DNA of 64,000 nt from a phage. Positions 36,112-62,126 of this stretch are shown here, one piece after another (position 1 is the stretch's first letter; every line of letters starts with the position of its first letter). The notes beneath the pieces were generated by a model. That model was not told where the DNA came from and did no database searches. It saw only the letters and a list, made by a program, of their open reading frames with translations. The stretch lies in the sequence record PQ338057.1. One strand, 5' to 3'. The translations under genes and the position numbers were made by a program.

Positions 36112-37797
36112 GTGAATATAAACGTCGCCGAATTGTTAAATGGGAATTACATTCTGTTATTATTTGTGGTCCTCGCGCTTGGGCTATGTCTCGGAAAGTT
36201 ACGACTTGGTTCGATCCAACTGGGTAATTCCATTGGCGTTTTAGTCGTATCGCTGTTATTAGGCCAACAACATTTCAGCATTAACACCGATGCGCTTAAT
36301 CTTGGCTTTATGCTGTTTATTTTCTGCGTCGGGGTCGAAGCCGGACCGAACTTTTTTTCCATTTTTTTTCGCGATGGGAAAAATTACCTAATGTTAGCAC
36401 TGGTGATGGTTGGCAGTGCGCTGGTGATCGCCTTAGGGTTAGGTAAGCTGTTTGGCTGGGATATTGGCCTGACGGCCGGTATGTTAGCAGGCTCTATGAC
36501 GTCGACACCGGTTCTGGTCGGTGCTGGCGATACACTGCGTCATTCCGGCATGGAAAGCAGGCAGCTCTCACTGGCACTGGATAATCTGAGCCTCGGGTAT
36601 GCCTTAACCTATTTAATCGGTCTGGTGAGTTTGATTGTTGGTGCGCGTTACTTGCCGAAATTGCAGCATCAGGACTTACAGACCAGCGCCCAGCAAATCG
36701 CCCGCGAACGTGGCCTGGACACTGATGCCAACCGTAAGGTTTATTTACCGGTGATCCGCGCCTATCGCGTCGGCCCGGAACTGGTGGCCTGGACCGACGG
36801 CAAAAATCTGCGTGAACTGGGTATTTATCGACAAACCGGCTGCTACATTGAACGTATTCGACGTAACGGGATTCTGGCAAATCCAGACGGTGATGCCGTG
36901 CTACAAATGGGCGATGAAATAGCGTTGGTAGGCTATCCCGACGCCCATGCCCGACTCGATCCCAGCTTCCGTAACGGTAAAGAAGTTTTCGATCGTGACC
37001 TTCTCGACATGCGTATCGTCACTGAAGAAGTGGTCGTTAAAAACCATAACGCTGTAGGTAAACGTCTCGCACAACTGAAGTTGACCGATCACGGTTGCTT
37101 CCTTAACCGCGTCATTCGTAGCCAGATTGAGATGCCGATAGATGACAACGTCGTGCTTAACAAAGGTGACGTTTTACAAGTCAGCGGCGATGCCCGCCGC
37201 GTAAAAACCATCGCCGATCGCATCGGCTTTATCTCGATTCACAGCCAGGTCACTGACCTGCTGGCATTCTGCGCCTTCTTTGTTATTGGGCTGATGATCG
37301 GGATGATCACCTTCCAGTTCAGCACATTCAGTTTCGGCATGGGGAACGCTGCCGGGTTGTTATTCGCCGGAATTATGCTGGGCTTTATGCGTGCTAACCA
37401 CCCGACCTTCGGTTACATTCCGCAGGGTGCATTAAGCATGGTGAAAGAGTTCGGCTTGATGGTGTTTATGGCAGGCGTTGGTCTGAGCGCCGGTAGCGGT
37501 ATTAATAACGGCCTGGGCGCGATTGGCGGTCAGATGTTGATTGCCGGATTGATTGTCAGTCTGGTGCCCGTGGTTATCTGTTTCTTGTTCGGTGCTTATG
37601 TATTGCGAATGAACCGCGCGCTGTTGTTCGGCGCAATGATGGGCGCACGTACCTGCGCGCCGGCAATGGAGATCATCAGTGATACAGCTCGCAGTAACAT
37701 CCCGGCGCTGGGCTATGCGGGCACCTATGCAATCGCCAACGTCCTGCTGACGCTGGCAGGGACAATCATCGTCATGGTATGGCCAGGATTAGGATAA
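36112..37797 (+). CDS. ybjL: Putative transporter YbjL (duplicated membrane domains plus cytoplasmic domain)
   Basis: 561 aa; conserved synteny. Confidence 0.9.
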
Positions 37798-37918
37798 AAC
37801 TGAAGTTGCCCTGAAAATGAAATTTTTTTGCACAACCGCAGAACTTTTCCGCAGGGCATCAGTCTTAATTAGTGCCACTGCTTTTCTTTGATGTCCCCAT
37901 TTTGTGGAGCCCATCAAC

Positions 37919-37961
37919 CCCGCCATTTCGGTTCAAGGTTGATGGGTTTTTTGTTGCCTGA
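37919..37961 (+). terminator. ybjL intrinsic terminator
   Basis: 10-bp stem cccatcaacc/ggttgatggg followed by T-run. Confidence 0.55.
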
Positions 37962-38009
37962 AATTTATGCTCTTTAAAATCATGATGTTAGAAGCACTGT
38001 TTTTTAACG

Positions 38010-38032
38010 ATGGCGACAAAATGGCGGCAGCG
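38010..38032. repeat. Prophage att core repeat (ogr-proximal end)
   Basis: atggcgacaaaatggcggcagcg; 22/23 identical to 61982-62004; abuts ogr stop codon. Confidence 0.6.
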
Positions 38033-38284
38033 TCAAAGAGAGAGCGCCACCTGTCCTGATTTCATTGGATGCGGCTGAACCGGATTTGACTCTTTTGGCG
38101 TTGCAATCGAACGAACAAAAGTTTCATGAGTAACAAAAGTATGGCTGCAGTTAATGTTCTGGCACTGGTTGTAACGCTCTTTGGTCAATGAAGATACCTG
38201 AAAACTGCTGCGAGTATGGGCGGCACTTCCACACAGTGGGCAAATCATCATTTTTCGAGTTCTCCCCATTTTTGCTAAATTCAC
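38033..38284 (-). CDS. ogr: Ogr/Delta-type zinc-finger late-gene activator
   Basis: 83 aa; CPLCGSAAH...CQNINCSHTF four-Cys motif as in P2 Ogr. Confidence 0.85.
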   Translation of the reverse strand: MNLAKMGRTRKMMICPLCGSAAHTRSSFQVSSLTKERYNQCQNINCSHTFVTHETFVRSIATPKESNPVQPHPMKSGQVALSL

Positions 38285-38341
38285 AATAATGATACCGCAT
38301 TATTCCATTTTGAGAACTTAAAAGTTCTCCATTGCGAAGAA

Positions 38342-38710
38342 TCATTCCATTTCGAAATCATCAATCTTCACTTCAAGCTCCAGACTGGTCGTAAAACCGT
38401 TATCCGGGCTGACAGTATGCGTCAGGGTGGTAATAGTCCATTCCGCATCATCTATCGGCTGTTTAAAGCCACTGACTTTCACTGGCATTTCCGTGTAGAG
38501 ATCTGCCCGCCCTTCCGCCAGTTGTAGCGAGAATGACGCAACGCCGCGTTGCAGGCGTTCCCACTGCATTTTCGCCGCTCGTTCGGCGTTGCTCCGGTTG
38601 GCATAAGTGCGATTAAGTACCAGCACGTTTTCATCCGTACCCACCAGGTAATCGCCCTGCTTCGCTTCCGGCTCTTTCTTCTGCTTCTTAGTTCTGCGCT
38701 TACGCTTCAC
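38342..38710 (-). pseudogene. C-terminal remnant of P2 gpD-like late tail protein
   Basis: 122-aa ORF immediately upstream of ogr as in P2 (U-D-ogr); far shorter than gpD (~390 aa); fused to the invertase remnant. Confidence 0.55.
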
Positions 38711-38988
38711 CGTGGTGCTTTCTTTCTTCGCAGGTTCGCGGGTAACTCTTCTATCAGCGTAACAAGATGCCGCATACTGCGCCCCAACCTGTCCAGCTTC
38801 CAGACAACCAGCGTGTCTCCTGCCGATAGTGTCCTGAGCAGTTTTTTCAGCCCCGGTCTGTCGGACTTAGTGCCGCTGATTTTATCCTCAAAAATCCGCT
38901 CACATCCCGCGCAGTTCAGCGCACTACGTTGCAAATCGGTGTTCTGGTCATTTGTTGACACGCGTACATAGCCAATAAGCATGATCAT
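38707..38988 (-). pseudogene. Truncated Gin/Pin/Hin-family serine DNA invertase (N-terminal ~80 aa only)
   Basis: MLIGYVRVSTNDQNTDLQ...DTLVVWKLDRLGRS matches the invertase catalytic domain; C-terminal HTH domain absent. Confidence 0.75.
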
Positions 38989-39009
38989 CTCCTTGAATAA
39001 AAATCGGGG

Positions 39010-39552
39010 ATGATGCCAGTTAGTCGTAATCGCTGCATTTTCTTAAACGTTGGTTTGGGAGAAGACTCTGCATTACCTGTTGGGGTGCCTGTTCCGTGGC
39101 CTTCAGCCACTCCGCCTACAGGCTGGCTGAAATGCAATGGTGCAGCTTTTTCTGCTGAAGAATACCCGGAACTGGCAAAGGCTTATCCGACAAATAAATT
39201 GCCTGATTTACGTGGTGAGTTTATTCGTGGCTGGGATGATGGGCGTGGTATTGATGCTGGACGTGCCTTGCTAAGTCTTCAGAATGGAGGAGTGGAATCA
39301 CACACCCACCAGGGACAGCTCTTCAGAGTCAGTGATTATCGTACAAAAGAAATACCAGCATCAGAAGTTATGGGAAGAGGATATATTGCAAGCCTGACGC
39401 CGGGTGCTGATAGCCCACTTGATTTTGATGATTATTCTGTATCCTCTAATCCAAATGGATATTTTGTCGGGAATCAGAGAACAACAGCATATGGGGTAAA
39501 TGAAACCCGCCCACGGAATATTGCATTTAACTATATCGTGAGGGCTGCATAA
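39010..39552 (+). CDS. Alternative tail-fibre C-terminal cassette (promoterless) in invertible segment
   Basis: Opposite orientation to H; shares the GLG junction with H at the crossover repeat; followed by its own tfa gene. Confidence 0.7.
   Translation: MMPVSRNRCIFLNVGLGEDSALPVGVPVPWPSATPPTGWLKCNGAAFSAEEYPELAKAYPTNKLPDLRGEFIRGWDDGRGIDAGRALLSLQNGGVESHTHQGQLFRVSDYRTKEIPASEVMGRGYIASLTPGADSPLDFDDYSVSSNPNGYFVGNQRTTAYGVNETRPRNIAFNYIVRAA
39041..39064. repeat. gix/hix-like invertase crossover site (invertase-proximal)
   Basis: ttcttaaacgttggtttgggagaa; 13-bp core ttggtttgggaga is a perfect inverted copy of 41127-41139. Confidence 0.55.
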
Positions 39553-40154: not shown

Positions 40155-40563
40155 GCCATTCAATATCTGGCACACTGGAGGTATCAACCAGCTCCAGTGC
40201 GTCCAGATAATCCAGCCACGAATTATATTGCGCCAGTTCCTCGCCTTTCAGACGACCAATAGCGGCTTTACCGGGCCATTGTTTACTGTTCATGTATTCG
40301 TTGGCCTGATTAATTAATAGCTGTCTTTTTGACTCAGAAATTTCAATAAGTTCTTCATGCGTGGGTGAAGGAATATCTGCCCACGCAGGCATTCCGTCTG
40401 CACCTGCAATACGTCGCTTACCCTGCGGAGGTGTCGCCATAAACGACTCGGCACGTCGGGTTTCAATATCTTTTGCATCATCAGGCCATGTGCCGGAATC
40501 GCGGTATACGGCCTCATTACCAGCCAGATAAAACGCATTTTTTTTAGCACTGTATTTGTACAT
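40126..40563 (-). CDS. Tail-fibre assembly protein (P2 gpG-like)
   Basis: 145 aa directly downstream of H. Confidence 0.8.
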   Translation of the reverse strand: MYKYSAKKNAFYLAGNEAVYRDSGTWPDDAKDIETRRAESFMATPPQGKRRIAGADGMPAWADIPSPTHEELIEISESKRQLLINQANEYMNSKQWPGKAAIGRLKGEELAQYNSWLDYLDALELVDTSSVPDIEWPTPPAVQAR

Positions 40564-40564
40564 A

Positions 40565-42187
40565 TTATTTCCCTACCGCAATCCAGAAAAATGAACTCAT
40601 GCTGGCTACTGGTGCTCCGCCCGCTGTTGGAATCATCAGATTTCGGACGCCGCATCCTAAATTAGTTATCGTTGGCGCTGAAATTACTGGCGACTGAACT
40701 ACGTTAGGAAGCGATGCCTGCTGAGGACCAAATCCCACATACATCGGGTATGCAGAGAACGCGACAGGAAACGTAATAAAGATCTCTCCAGTTGATGATG
40801 GATTGGCTGCCCCCCACTGAATAATCAGACCTGACGGTAATTTTTGCCAGCCAGGGCTGGTCAGGCTGGATGTGAAGTCATTCATATCCGGAATCTGATT
40901 TGCCCCTGAGCCAACATCCCTTTGAGCCGCACTTTTCAGATCAAGATAAGTTCTTAGTTCAGCCTTATCCTTACCGCTTAAATCTGTCAGTGTCTGGTCT
41001 TTTGGTTGCGCATAGTCTTTTGTTGCCAGACGAACTACTGTATTTGTTCTGGCGAATCGCATATACGGGGCATTGACGTTACTACTGTCAAACCCTGCAA
41101 TTTTACATTCATCACCAATTAATGCATCTCCCAAACCAAGGTATGCGAGAAGACCAGCTACATCCTTTCCACTCAAATTAGTCAGCGTATTGTCCAACGG
41201 TTGTTTACCTGCCAGCGCATTAAGCATTGTCGTGGCAAAGTTCGGGTCATTCCCCAGCGCCGCAGCCAGTTCGTTCAGTGTATCCAGTGCAGCAGGTGCA
41301 GACCCCACCATTGCCGCAATTGCCGATTTCACAAAAGCCGTGGTGGCAATCTGTGTATTGTTAACCGACTGTGCGGCAGTGGGGGCTGTTGGCGTTCCGG
41401 TGAATGCCGGACTTAACAGCGGCGCTTTCAGTGCCAGCGCATTGTTAATGGTGGTACTGAATTTCGGGTCATTATTAATGGCAGCGGCAATTTCTTTCAT
41501 CGTATCCAGTGTGGCTGGCGCACCATTAATAAGGGCCATCAGTGCCGCCTGAACAAACGCGGTGGTCGCAATCTGCGTGGTGTTATTCCCCTCCGCTGGC
41601 GTTGGCGCTTTGGGTGTTCCGGTCAATGTCGGGCTTTCTTTGGGTGCATACTGTGAATGCGGGTCCGGTGCGGCAAGATGTTTTGCCATCTTATCATCCA
41701 CGAACACCTTCAGCTCCAGTACCTTGTCATCCACATACTTGCGGGTTGCCAGCACGACGGCAGGGTCGATTTTCAGGGTGATATTGTCCGTGCTGCTGGT
41801 AATCAGCACCATGCGCACGGTCTGGGTACGCCCACTGCCTTCAGCCAGTTGCGGCTTATAGCTTTCCGGGCAGTTTCCCACGGCAATCAATGCCCCGGAC
41901 TCATCAAACAGGCCCACTTCACGTATCCACCAACCGCCCTCATTTTCAGGGATTACCTGTTCAGCAATAATCTGGCTACTGTTCTGCGGGTCGATATAGA
42001 GCATATTCAGCGCAGCCCGGCGTTTCTCATTCACCAGTGCAGTCTGCTTTGCATCCGGCGTTGGCAATACTCCGCCGCCATCGCCGACCGCCATATGGGT
42101 AATTTTTAAAGGCACACCGAGCGCGGCGGCGCTGGCAAGTTTCGCCGCGCCAATATCCGTCAGCAGGGTATAAAATTTTGTGCTCAT
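40565..42187 (-). CDS. Tail fibre protein (P2 gpH-like)
   Basis: 540 aa; N-terminus MSTKFYTLLTDIGAAKLA...MAVGDGGG resembles P2 H. Confidence 0.88.
   Translation of the reverse strand: MSTKFYTLLTDIGAAKLASAAALGVPLKITHMAVGDGGGVLPTPDAKQTALVNEKRRAALNMLYIDPQNSSQIIAEQVIPENEGGWWIREVGLFDESGALIAVGNCPESYKPQLAEGSGRTQTVRMVLITSSTDNITLKIDPAVVLATRKYVDDKVLELKVFVDDKMAKHLAAPDPHSQYAPKESPTLTGTPKAPTPAEGNNTTQIATTAFVQAALMALINGAPATLDTMKEIAAAINNDPKFSTTINNALALKAPLLSPAFTGTPTAPTAAQSVNNTQIATTAFVKSAIAAMVGSAPAALDTLNELAAALGNDPNFATTMLNALAGKQPLDNTLTNLSGKDVAGLLAYLGLGDALIGDECKIAGFDSSNVNAPYMRFARTNTVVRLATKDYAQPKDQTLTDLSGKDKAELRTYLDLKSAAQRDVGSGANQIPDMNDFTSSLTSPGWQKLPSGLIIQWGAANPSSTGEIFITFPVAFSAYPMYVGFGPQQASLPNVVQSPVISAPTITNLGCGVRNLMIPTAGGAPVASMSSFFWIAVGK
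41127..41152. repeat. gix/hix-like invertase crossover site inside H
   Basis: tctcccaaaccaa is the reverse complement of the 39050-39062 core; sits at the GLG codons of H. Confidence 0.55.
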
Positions 42188-44714: not shown

Positions 44715-45521
44715 ATGAGTGTTATGAATCCAATAAGTTCTAATATATTTAATGCTGAATTTTTAAACACCCCGGCAGCGGCACTTGCCGCATGGATTTC
44801 CATTATTGGAGCTGTTATAACTTTGGTGACGATAGTTATAAGAGCACTATTCAAATATAGAAAATCTCATGATGTAATTTTGAAAAAATCAGGAATACCT
44901 GCGTTTATATTAAATTTTTTTCTTATACGAATATCATTAAAAAGGCTGCCTACTATCACATGGGCTGAAAAATCAATCACGGTTCTCTTTTCACTTCTTT
45001 TTTTGTGTGCAATTTATATTTTTGGTCCAGTTTTCATCCAAGCCATTAGAACCCCACCAAATAGCACATTGCTTTATTGGATAAAGTCCGGTGAATCATT
45101 TTATATGTCAAAAAAACTGGCGACTGCAGCTACAATATTAACCACTCCTGATTGGGAAATATCAAAAGATGATTGCGAAGAGTCATCCTCTGCCAGTACA
45201 GAGAAGTACAAATCATTAACTATCGAACATAAAGAAATTCTTTGTAAACTACTAACCACTGATGAAGGGAATACTTACATTGATGAAGAAGTCAAGAATT
45301 TCGTTAAAGACAAATTCTTTATCTATTCCTTTGCCCCAACAACCATATTTATTCTATTATGGATTTCTTTGGGTTTTATACTGACCATTCACTATTCTAA
45401 AAAAGTTAGGAAATATATTCTGACTGAACAAAAAAATGCAATTCATTGGGCATATGGTGAATTCAAGACAGAAGGAATCTATTCAATATATCACGAGTTA
45501 GAACGTAAGACTCACCATTAA
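44715..45521 (+). CDS. AT-rich cargo gene encoding a polytopic membrane protein
   Basis: 268 aa with several hydrophobic helices; SD aggtgg; anti-oriented between S and V where P2 has no gene. Confidence 0.6.
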   Translation: MSVMNPISSNIFNAEFLNTPAAALAAWISIIGAVITLVTIVIRALFKYRKSHDVILKKSGIPAFILNFFLIRISLKRLPTITWAEKSITVLFSLLFLCAIYIFGPVFIQAIRTPPNSTLLYWIKSGESFYMSKKLATAATILTTPDWEISKDDCEESSSASTEKYKSLTIEHKEILCKLLTTDEGNTYIDEEVKNFVKDKFFIYSFAPTTIFILLWISLGFILTIHYSKKVRKYILTEQKNAIHWAYGEFKTEGIYSIYHELERKTHH

Positions 45522-46857: not shown

Positions 46858-46993
46858 AGTCCAGCTCCTTTAAGGCACCAGGCCATCTCCCGCGCACGGC
46901 GGTTATCCAGCCCCTGATTAAACACACCTTTTACATAAACCCAGCGCGGCAACTGTCGGCACGCATCTGCCCAGCGCCGCTGATTGAGCAATT

Positions 46994-47746
46994 TCACCAG
47001 TGTGGAACTACAGGCATTGCCCGTTGCTGCTTCTGCAGAGCAGACTCCAGTTCAGACAGGCGTTCTTCCTGCTCAGACAGAGATTTTTCGGTTCGCGCGC
47101 TCAGGTTTTGCTGCTCAGTGGCGACCAGCTCCACGGCCTTATGCACATCAGAGAACCGGGCGTCATCGGACTGCTCTTTTTTGGTGAACAGCGCCGTGAC
47201 GCGGGAAAACAGGGACGGTTTGTCGTCCTGGACTTCCTCCAGTTCGATCACCGTTTCCTCTGCAGCGGTAAAGAGATTGGCAGGATTCTGCTTGCGGTTT
47301 GCCAGCGGGTTATGGGCTGCACTGGCGCTGAATGTCAGCATTTCAGTGCCCAGACTGGCAGGGTCATCAGTGGCAGCCAGGCCGACCAGGTAGGCTTTGC
47401 CCGTATCAGCGAACTTCGGGCTGACTTCCATAGAGGTGAATAATTTCTGGCCTTTTTTCACCAGTTCCACCAGGGACTCCGTTGGCTCAACGTCGGCATA
47501 CAGCGCCATCTTGCCTGCCAGCGGACCTTCCGTGATTTCCTCAGCAAACAGCGCCGTCACCTTGCCGTAGCGGTTAAAGGTGCTGTCCGGCAGATAAGAC
47601 TTGATGTGCTCAAGGTTAATCAGCGCGGTATACACCGCCGGGTTGTAGCTGGCTGCCATCTGTTCCAGCCATTCACGCTGGATTTCGCGTCCGTCGGTGG
47701 TGGCACCTTCCACCCCGATGCGAAAACGCTTTGCTTTCACTGTCAT
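46994..47746 (-). pseudogene. Capsid scaffold protein (P2 gpO-like), C-terminally truncated
   Basis: 250 aa, resembles P2 gpO; divergent from P; the downstream N-M-L-X-Y-K-lysA block is missing. Confidence 0.7.
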
Positions 47747-50688: not shown

Positions 50689-50716
50689 CGAAGACCATTA
50701 GGTCTTCGCTTTATTT
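50689..50716. terminator. Hairpin between convergent portal and retron RT genes
   Basis: cgaagacc-atta-ggtcttcg followed by ctttattt. Confidence 0.45.
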
Positions 50717-51660
50717 AAAGGGTTCTTTCCATATTTTTTTTCTAATTTGCTAATATAAGTTATTAATCTCCTATGGCTTTTTGAATCCACACTTAAAATA
50801 AATGACAACCATCCCCTAACGTGTTCTATCTCAGAAGACTTACCGCAAAATATATGATGTATCTTTGCTCTAATTTCTTTATATTTTTCTCTACCTATCC
50901 CAACTTTCTCTTGTGAAATAACTAAACCTGTAACTTTCCTCTGACTACGAGGCCCACTAATACAAGTTTTTTTTGAGTTAATAACCAATCCTTCACTTGG
51001 GATTATAGAAAATAAAAAATCACGTGCTTTAACAACCTTTTTCATAGACTGTGCAGATAAGGTGAGATCATCGGCATATCTCGTATATATCAAGCCCCGA
51101 CTACCTGCATAACCCTGAATACGATAATCAAGTTTAGAACATATTAGATTAGCTAATTTAGGTGATGATGGAGCACCTTGTGGTAGCAGATTTTTATAAC
51201 AACATATTTTTGTCAAAACTGAAGATATTAGTCGATTATAACCAAGAGAATGGAACACTCCAAAAACTTTGTTAGCAGTTAAACTTGGGAAAAAATCCTC
51301 CAAATCAATATTCAGTATAAAGTTTGCCCCAATATGCGGGGTAGCATTATTCAAAATAGATTGGTGCTTTTCAAATCCAATAGAAAAAGGAGATGACGAC
51401 AGTTTATCTAAAATGTTACGTAGAACCCATCCTTGTAAGGCTTTAAGTTCTCGAGAAGGTTGGTAAATGGTTCTCATTCTCTTCTCTGGGCCTTTCTTTT
51501 CTACAGTGTAGATCCTATAGCGAAAATCAGCTGTATAGATTAACAACCGAAGTGTTTCAACAGATATGCGAGTCGCCTTAGACATGTCATGCAAATTGTT
51601 CATGACAGGTAGGCCGAGATTTCTCAATCTAAAAGTGTTCAAATATTCAGCGGATTTCAT
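50698..51660 (-). CDS. ret: Retron-type reverse transcriptase
   Basis: 320 aa; motifs NATPH (NAxxH), YADD, VTG; AT-rich; ncRNA immediately upstream; from memory matches the Ec86/Eco1 RT. Confidence 0.95.
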   Translation of the reverse strand: MKSAEYLNTFRLRNLGLPVMNNLHDMSKATRISVETLRLLIYTADFRYRIYTVEKKGPEKRMRTIYQPSRELKALQGWVLRNILDKLSSSPFSIGFEKHQSILNNATPHIGANFILNIDLEDFFPSLTANKVFGVFHSLGYNRLISSVLTKICCYKNLLPQGAPSSPKLANLICSKLDYRIQGYAGSRGLIYTRYADDLTLSAQSMKKVVKARDFLFSIIPSEGLVINSKKTCISGPRSQRKVTGLVISQEKVGIGREKYKEIRAKIHHIFCGKSSEIEHVRGWLSFILSVDSKSHRRLITYISKLEKKYGKNPLNKAKT

Positions 51661-51666
51661 GAAAGT

Positions 51667-51836
51667 TGCGCACCCTTACGTCAGAAAAAACGGGTTTCCT
51701 GGTTGGCTCGGAGAGCATCAGGCGATGCTCTCCGTTCCAACAAGGAAAACAGACAGTAACTCAGATTCAATGCAGGATGCCGAAACAACATCCAGAGGTT
51801 GACCTTAATGATAAACCTCTCGCTAAGGGTGCGCAT
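51667..51836 (-). ncRNA. msr-msd: Retron msr-msd non-coding RNA
   Basis: 12-nt terminal inverted repeats tgcgcaccctta (51667-51678) and taagggtgcgca (51824-51835); long internal hairpin; ends 7 nt before the RT start. Confidence 0.85.
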
Positions 51837-52746
51837 ACGGAATCTTATCATAGTTAAATGTTGATTTTCTACGGTTTTCAAAATTCATAATCTCAAGCCG
51901 CAATCGGTCAAGTGTCTTTCTATCAAAGACGCTCCTAACATAGCTAGCCCCCAAAGCAGTGACCTGATAACCATCAGTCATTTGAAGTATTTTTCGTTCA
52001 TTTATTAGACGAGAAACAACGGATCTAACAATAATTTTAGATAAAACATCATCTTGCTTTATCGCTTTAAAAGCTAGTTCACACAGTGTGCGGTAGTTGA
52101 CACTATCCAGTAAATAGATACAAGGCAATAGAAACCGCTCTGCGTATAATATATTTCCAATATCTTTTGATACTTTATTTTCTTTCCTAACCTTCTTAAT
52201 AGATGCCATTAATTTTTTATATAATCGTAATTTTCTGGCAACATCAATAGATGAATCACACATTTCTTTTAGTTCATTTGAACTACAACGCAAAACAGAT
52301 TTTGAATTAAACTTACGCAACAGGCGAACAGGACCATAGTTAATAAAGCTACGTTTTGATTTAAATTTTGCATCTTGAATGCAAATCAACTTTCTCCTTA
52401 AGTTTTCATTATTAGAGAACGCACCAAGCTCTGTGAAAGACCCCGGACTTTCAGGAAATAAAATTATTACATCGACAGCTTCAGCCAGAATATTTTCTAA
52501 ACTTAAAAGGCTATGCTGCCCTTGACCAGCCAAAAGATCATCAAATAGATCTTCTGGATAAAATATATCAACATCACTGAACTTTGCTAAAAATTGTGAT
52601 AATTGATGACGCCAAGATTGATGATTAGCAACGTCACCACCACATAGAAAAATGGTTATTTTAATATTAGCTCCTCGATAGAAGCCTTTCTTTGTGAGAT
52701 GTCCTATAAGCTGTTGTTGCTGCTCATCGGTAAATTTTTTATTCAT
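51823..52746 (-). CDS. Retron effector (predicted nucleoside-deoxyribosyltransferase-like N-glycosidase with C-terminal DNA-binding region)
   Basis: 307 aa, AT-rich; first gene of the retron operon with its 3' end overlapping the msr start; Rossmann-like N-terminus KITIFLCGG. Confidence 0.75.
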   Translation of the reverse strand: MNKKFTDEQQQQLIGHLTKKGFYRGANIKITIFLCGGDVANHQSWRHQLSQFLAKFSDVDIFYPEDLFDDLLAGQGQHSLLSLENILAEAVDVIILFPESPGSFTELGAFSNNENLRRKLICIQDAKFKSKRSFINYGPVRLLRKFNSKSVLRCSSNELKEMCDSSIDVARKLRLYKKLMASIKKVRKENKVSKDIGNILYAERFLLPCIYLLDSVNYRTLCELAFKAIKQDDVLSKIIVRSVVSRLINERKILQMTDGYQVTALGASYVRSVFDRKTLDRLRLEIMNFENRRKSTFNYDKIPYAHP

Positions 52747-62004: not shown

Positions 62005-62126
62005 GTTGGCATTACCCCGTAATAACCACCACTGACCACCAACCCAACTTATTGTTTTTACTATAACTTATTGTTTTCATTAACCCGTTTACATAAATGG
62101 GTTTTTTGTTATCTAAAACTTATCTA

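Follow-up and report, generated by a model that had tools for sequence, protein, structure and literature searches.

A 6,905-bp deletion joins invertase and gene D remnants in the retron-Ec86 P2-like prophage of Escherichia coli B

Introduction

The late genes of phage P2 follow the order H-G-Z/fun-FI-FII-E-T-U-D-ogr, and to our knowledge P2 carries no invertase. The P2-like lineage examined here shares this late-gene order, with ogr at the end, and differs from P2 in what stands between the fibre-assembly genes and FI, namely Z/fun in P2 and an invertase gene in this lineage. A prophage of this lineage is already known from E. coli B. The genome paper on E. coli W records a prophage of B at rybB, 'Rybb*B (P2)', together with retron Ec86 (PMC3032704), and retron-Eco1/Ec86 has been placed in a P2-like prophage of BL21 (bioRxiv 10.1101/2020.06.22.160242). 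Decayed relatives have also been recorded, as K-12 carries an 'ogr-D'' remnant at cyaR, the site at which B harbours its other P2-like remnant, 'P2*B' (PMC3032704, Table 2).

Here, we examine one scar within the rybB prophage, contained in a stretch of 64,000 nucleotides (PQ338057.1; hereafter, the window). The original prediction, made from the letters of the window, held that a deletion had fused an invertase remnant to a gpD remnant just upstream of ogr. We mapped the scar against intact relatives, followed it through complete genomes and weighed alternative explanations of its origin. The junction was not described in the papers covered on P2 Hy dis and on P2-like phylogeny, and its exact breakpoints and size were not found stated in the literature covered, a set without the two B-genome papers of 2009 in J Mol Biol.

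Results

Identity, site and extent of the prophage

The window corresponds to the chromosome of E. coli B (REL606/BL21), with the 1.8 kb around the junction showing 100% identity to REL606, BL21(DE3), ATCC 11303 and other B strains. The scar is located at the ybjL/rybB end of the retron-Ec86 P2-like prophage (Table 1), and we found no difference between this element and the 'Rybb*B' of E. coli B that carries retron Ec86/Eco1. The last 14 nt of rybB (ATGGGTTTTTTGTT, 37942-37955) occur again at 62097-62110, as shown by a repeat search and alignment, and this second copy likely marks the other prophage end and the att core. Measured from repeat to repeat, the element spans ~24.2 kb; adding the two gaps described below (6,905 and 3,146 bp) brings it to ~34 kb, the expected size of a P2-like genome. 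The late genes follow the P2-type order, with D and ogr last beside the attachment site, according to the REL606 annotation and colinearity with intact relatives. Ogr does not differ in protein sequence from its counterparts in those relatives (WP_000972391.1), and it matches Pfam Ogr_Delta with 78 bits.

Table 1 Features at and around the deletion junction (positions in the window).
Feature	Position	Strand	Description	Evidence
ybjL	36112-37797		junction region lies just past ybjL and rybB	
rybB sRNA gene	37877-37955	+	prophage attachment end (attR side)	Rfam, 105 bits
ogr	38033..38251 (coding 38251-38036)	-	intact, 72 aa; late-gene activator, Ogr/Delta zinc finger	tblastn, Pfam
Gene D remnant	38342..38743	-	baseplate hub, Phage_GPD / VgrG-Pvc8 family; codons 234-366 of 366 plus stop	tblastn, Pfam, RefSeq pseudogene
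Out-of-frame end of invertase ORF	38707..38743	-	11 codons of D DNA (PANLRRKKAPR) plus TGA	three-frame translation
Deletion junction	38744..38744		one A common to both parental sequences	blastn, three-way alignments
Serine invertase remnant	38744..38982	-	Din family (Hin/Gin/Cin/Pin-type); codons 1-80 of 188	tblastn, Pfam, alignment, RefSeq pseudogene
Invertible tail-fibre segment	39038..41151		2.1 kb; hix/gix-like inverted sites 39038-39062 and 41127-41151	
Second flush deletion	47024/47025 (remnants 46863-47027 and 47015-47746)	-	3,146 bp missing versus JNE082640 (L005 19065-22210)	

Two further features of the prophage were noticed. The retron Ec86/Eco1 reverse transcriptase and effector, annotated as 'retron St85 family', lie at ~50698-52746 (REL606 889892-891940) and adjoin the portal gene, a cos-proximal location that is a cargo hotspot in P2-like phages. 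An Rfam search of positions 37000-64000 at the gathering threshold returned no RNA family besides RybB, the retron locus included. A gene for a DUF6216 membrane protein (44715-45521, +) separates baseplate gene V from gene S and is read from the other strand; it is present in one of the two intact relatives compared below (JNE082640) and not in the other (Z226-7), pointing to a second small cargo slot.

A single flush joint with 6,905 bp missing

Undeleted versions of the prophage were found in E. coli Z226-7 (contig L003), at another site, and in E. coli JNE082640 (contig L005), at the same ybjL/rybB site. In both, the order is ogr-D-U-T-E'-E-FII-FI-invertase, which in Z226-7 is followed by the same invertible tail-fibre module; JNE082640 further carries a retron belonging to the family found in B (annotation: St85 family) and, as in B, DUF6216 between V and S. 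Both relatives share the gene order of the B prophage and 94-99% DNA identity on either side of the joint, apart from the tail-fibre/tfa segment, whereas unlike B they have kept a full invertase (188 aa), FI, FII, E, E', T, U, D (366 aa) and the head genes. Over its length, the B prophage is colinear with that of JNE082640 at 95-99% identity, except for a diverged tail-fibre/tfa stretch (89.9% identity, with 39240-39497 and 40445-41123 unaligned) and two cleanly bounded gaps (6,905 and 3,146 bp).

Against either relative, the window aligns to D up to 38744 and to the invertase gene from 38744 onward, and mapping against these complete P2-like genomes thus yielded a single joint with 6,905 bp missing (L003 7095-13999; L005 4096-11000; blastn and three-way alignments), the gap being the same for both. 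The joint is flush with an overlap of 1 nt, and therefore looks like the product of illegitimate recombination. No IS element or repeat was present at the joint in the alignments with the two relatives, which led us to reject an IS-mediated deletion.

The gap comprises the C-terminal 108 codons of the invertase, the spacer upstream of FI, the genes FI, FII, E/E', T and U, and codons 1-233 of D. The predicted absence of FI, FII, E, T, U and most of D was borne out. With queries from an intact relative, tblastn detected no homologue of gpU, T, E', E, FII or FI in any part of the window (64 kb), so that the full set FI, FII, E/E', T, U and D of a functional phage is lacking and no sheath or tube gene lies elsewhere in the window. 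These missing genes agree with the earlier proposal that the prophage would be unable to build a tail.

The proposal that a Z/fun accessory locus had been lost in the same event did not hold. In Z226-7 and JNE082640, the interval contains only the invertase gene and a 142-bp spacer, and with no gene between the invertase and FI in either intact relative, a lost cargo gene is not supported. The spacer, as seen in the intact relatives, holds a TGT-N12-ACA dyad ~75 nt upstream of FI, which we take to be the Ogr-responsive motif of P2 late promoters.

Two truncated genes in different frames

Searches with tblastn and Pfam, together with RefSeq pseudogene annotation, confirmed that an invertase remnant and a gpD remnant lie side by side just upstream of ogr. 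Together they occupy 38342-38982, corresponding to REL606 903656-904296. Over residues 1-80, the invertase remnant is 97.5% identical to the intact 188-aa protein of Z226-7. Its true start is the ATG at 38982, the start at 38988 in the list of open reading frames adding two extra residues. Although the catalytic Ser9 is retained, the remnant spans only positions 2-89 of the 145 in Pfam Resolvase, compared with 2-144 in the intact relative, and lacks the C-terminal HTH_7 domain that occupies residues 138-181 there (Pfam). With the HTH and half of the catalytic domain gone, the remnant would be inactive. In REL606, RefSeq already lists the recombinase piece as a pseudogene 'missing C-terminus'.

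On the other side of the joint, the D remnant (38743-38345) is 99.2% identical to residues 234-366 of the 366-aa gpD, with homology extending over 133 codons up to 38743/38744. It is likewise a RefSeq pseudogene in REL606 ('missing N-terminus'). The Pfam Phage_GPD model is matched only at positions 215-302 of 305, with a score of 29.9 that falls just below the Pfam cut-off of 30.1, whereas intact D covers positions 25-302 with 95 bits. The 122-aa frame described in the original prediction (38342-38710, GTG at 38710) is a mechanical ORF nested within the D remnant, and it aligned only to the C-terminal third of gpD, not full-length to an intact family.

The reading frame of the invertase had been said to run into the D fragment. 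This is right insofar as the ORF enters D DNA, but three-frame translation shows that the invertase and D frames differ at the joint and that the ORF stops at 38709-38707, 11 codons beyond it. Because the two frames differ, no fusion protein is made. The TGA of the invertase ORF overlaps the D-frame GTG at 38710 as GTGA (38710-38707), a layout typical of translational coupling; the overlap is probably a coincidence made by the deletion.

The adjacent invertible segment

Beside the invertase remnant lies the invertible segment, flanked by a 25-nt inverted repeat with an AAACC..GGTTT-type core, in keeping with the inverted crossover sites of ~26 bp expected next to an invertase; we take these sites to resemble hixL. 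The segment encodes an alternative fibre C-terminus and two tfa genes, and no cognate invertase is left in cis. In many other genomes, homology breaks at 39045-39047. K-12 genomes with an intact pinE contain the homologous e14 segment in both orientations, breaking at window position 39045 inside the crossover site, whereas the B-lineage segment was in one orientation in 44/44 genomes.

An invertase without its DNA-binding domain and half of its catalytic domain suggests that the tail-fibre switch is frozen, and a single orientation in B versus both in K-12 would fit such a switch. As the 44 genomes represent one lineage, however, their uniform orientation constitutes weak evidence for it.

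A second deletion in the same prophage

The other gap relative to JNE082640 is also flush, with an overlap of 2 nt, and places residues 115-169 of lysozyme K next to residues 1-244 of scaffold O. Lost with it are the holin Y, X, L, M (small terminase) and N (major capsid), along with portions of K and O. The original prediction dealt with the loss of the tail. The tail genes are indeed gone, but this second deletion also took head and lysis genes. Taken together, the 6,905-bp deletion and the 3,146-bp head/lysis deletion would account for the 24-kb defective prophage.

Distribution of the junction and other ogr-D' remnants

A 300-bp probe across the joint, searched in complete genomes, was contiguous and 100% identical in 44 of them, all identical over 8 kb. 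By strain name, nearly all are laboratory strains of the B lineage (REL606, several BL21 lines, ATCC 11303, NCTC10537 and 'B'), and the B-type junction was absent from the remaining complete genomes searched. One record, NZ_CP029371.1 (1206598-1215598; 'Escherichia coli strain C, cow's milk'), shows 100% identity to B across 8 kb, the joint included, and probably represents a B-lineage strain with a misleading name.

A different deletion, with ~6.3 kb gone, was found at the rybB prophage site of the wastewater isolate WWCOL-315 (NZ_CP155523.1; L004 9585-9645). Its joint brings together invertase codon ~125 and a D' of 293 codons, with imperfect microhomology over a few nt. The baseplate and fibre genes are likewise gone from that prophage but its head genes remain, a pattern of decay opposite to that in B.

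The other P2-like remnant of B, P2*B at yegQ/cyaR (L006 10410-12692; REL606 2100409-2102691), is located outside the window. It contains ogrK, an intact sheath gene and remnants of D (D', 164 codons) and FII (80 codons), the FII remnant lying ~48 bp from D' with nothing annotated between them. A cargo region that includes a glycosyltransferase lies between its H and FI. We considered P2*B as a source of tail genes for Rybb*B and rejected it, since P2*B has a truncated tube gene and seems to lack E/E', T and U, leaving no complementation. The K-12 ogr-D' remnant, P2*B and WWCOL-315 all resemble Rybb*B in that an internal deletion has spared ogr and the C-terminal part of D, but their breakpoints and partners are independent.

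Discussion

The anatomy of the junction is best explained by one 6,905-bp deletion through illegitimate recombination in an ancestor of all E. coli B laboratory lines, which left dead remnants on both sides; we put the probability of this reading at about 95%, and nothing that contradicts a single deletion turned up. Under this reading, the event would have taken place inside the ~34-kb P2-like prophage Rybb*B at rybB/ybjL, joining invertase codon 80 to gene D codon 234 and removing FI (sheath), FII (tube), E/E', T (tape measure), U and the 5' two-thirds of D at once. The remnants would persist as dead pseudogenes in different frames, with ogr surviving intact. As judged from gene content, the prophage would be unable to make a tail on its own, and its tail-fibre switch would be frozen in cis.

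Because a serine invertase and its crossover sites directly adjoin the deletion, one might ask whether the enzyme itself made it, by recombining a crossover site with a pseudo-site in D. We regard this as hardly credible. The left breakpoint falls at codon 80 of the invertase gene itself, with the nearest site (39038-39062) ~300 bp away, and the joint shares a single nucleotide whereas such enzymes require a 2-nt core within a 26-bp site. Alignments with the intact relatives revealed no hix/gix-like sequence at both parental breakpoints, and the second deletion of the prophage, which sits far from any crossover site, is equally flush. The idea that the joint is an artefact of assembly, or arose recently in the laboratory within a single strain, for which we found no supporting point, is refuted by the 100% identity of the 300-bp probe in 44 complete genomes that come from different groups and platforms.

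The two remnants could also be read as something retained for its function, either a chimeric invertase-gpD protein or a deliberately coupled pair of small proteins. The GTGA overlap can permit translational re-initiation, which would suit such a pair. Nevertheless, we consider this very improbable, as an in-frame fusion is ruled out by three-frame translation, with the invertase ORF ending 11 codons past the joint. The invertase piece has lost its HTH and half of its catalytic domain, and the D piece amounts to a third of the hub domain under the Pfam cut-off. A scan of 37800-39200 gave no ribosome-binding or promoter signal above chance, and the independent deletion in WWCOL-315 uses other breakpoints, showing that no particular fusion is conserved.

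A different kind of consequence may be imagined on top of the single deletion, namely that it rewired expression: once the late promoter of the FI operon was gone, the invertase promoter could read through the invertase remnant and the D' ORF, possibly re-initiated at GTGA, into ogr. We hold this to be a long shot. Promoter and terminator scans of 37800-39200 gave matches at chance level and are uninformative. If the idea is true, low constitutive Ogr in E. coli B could activate whichever late operons remain or influence P2/P4-type elements that enter the cell, and the repeated ogr-D' remnants (K-12, B twice and WWCOL-315) would reflect selection for keeping ogr. Yet no other target between the tail genes and the prophage end is as large as D, so random internal deletions would be expected to leave recurrent ogr-D' remnants without selection.

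Returning to the single deletion, the scar is ordinary prophage decay in a long-known defective prophage whose truncated genes were already annotated; the present analysis worked out where exactly the breakpoints lie and that 6,905 bp are missing by comparison with intact relatives. Beyond such book-keeping, the scar is of little importance. It nonetheless offers a clean case of prophage decay through flush internal deletions, and no intact tube, tape-measure or hub gene is present in either P2-like remnant of B considered here. For the biology of E. coli B, the junction provides a base-pair account of why the retron-Ec86 prophage of BL21 and REL606 is defective and of why its tail-fibre switch should be fixed.
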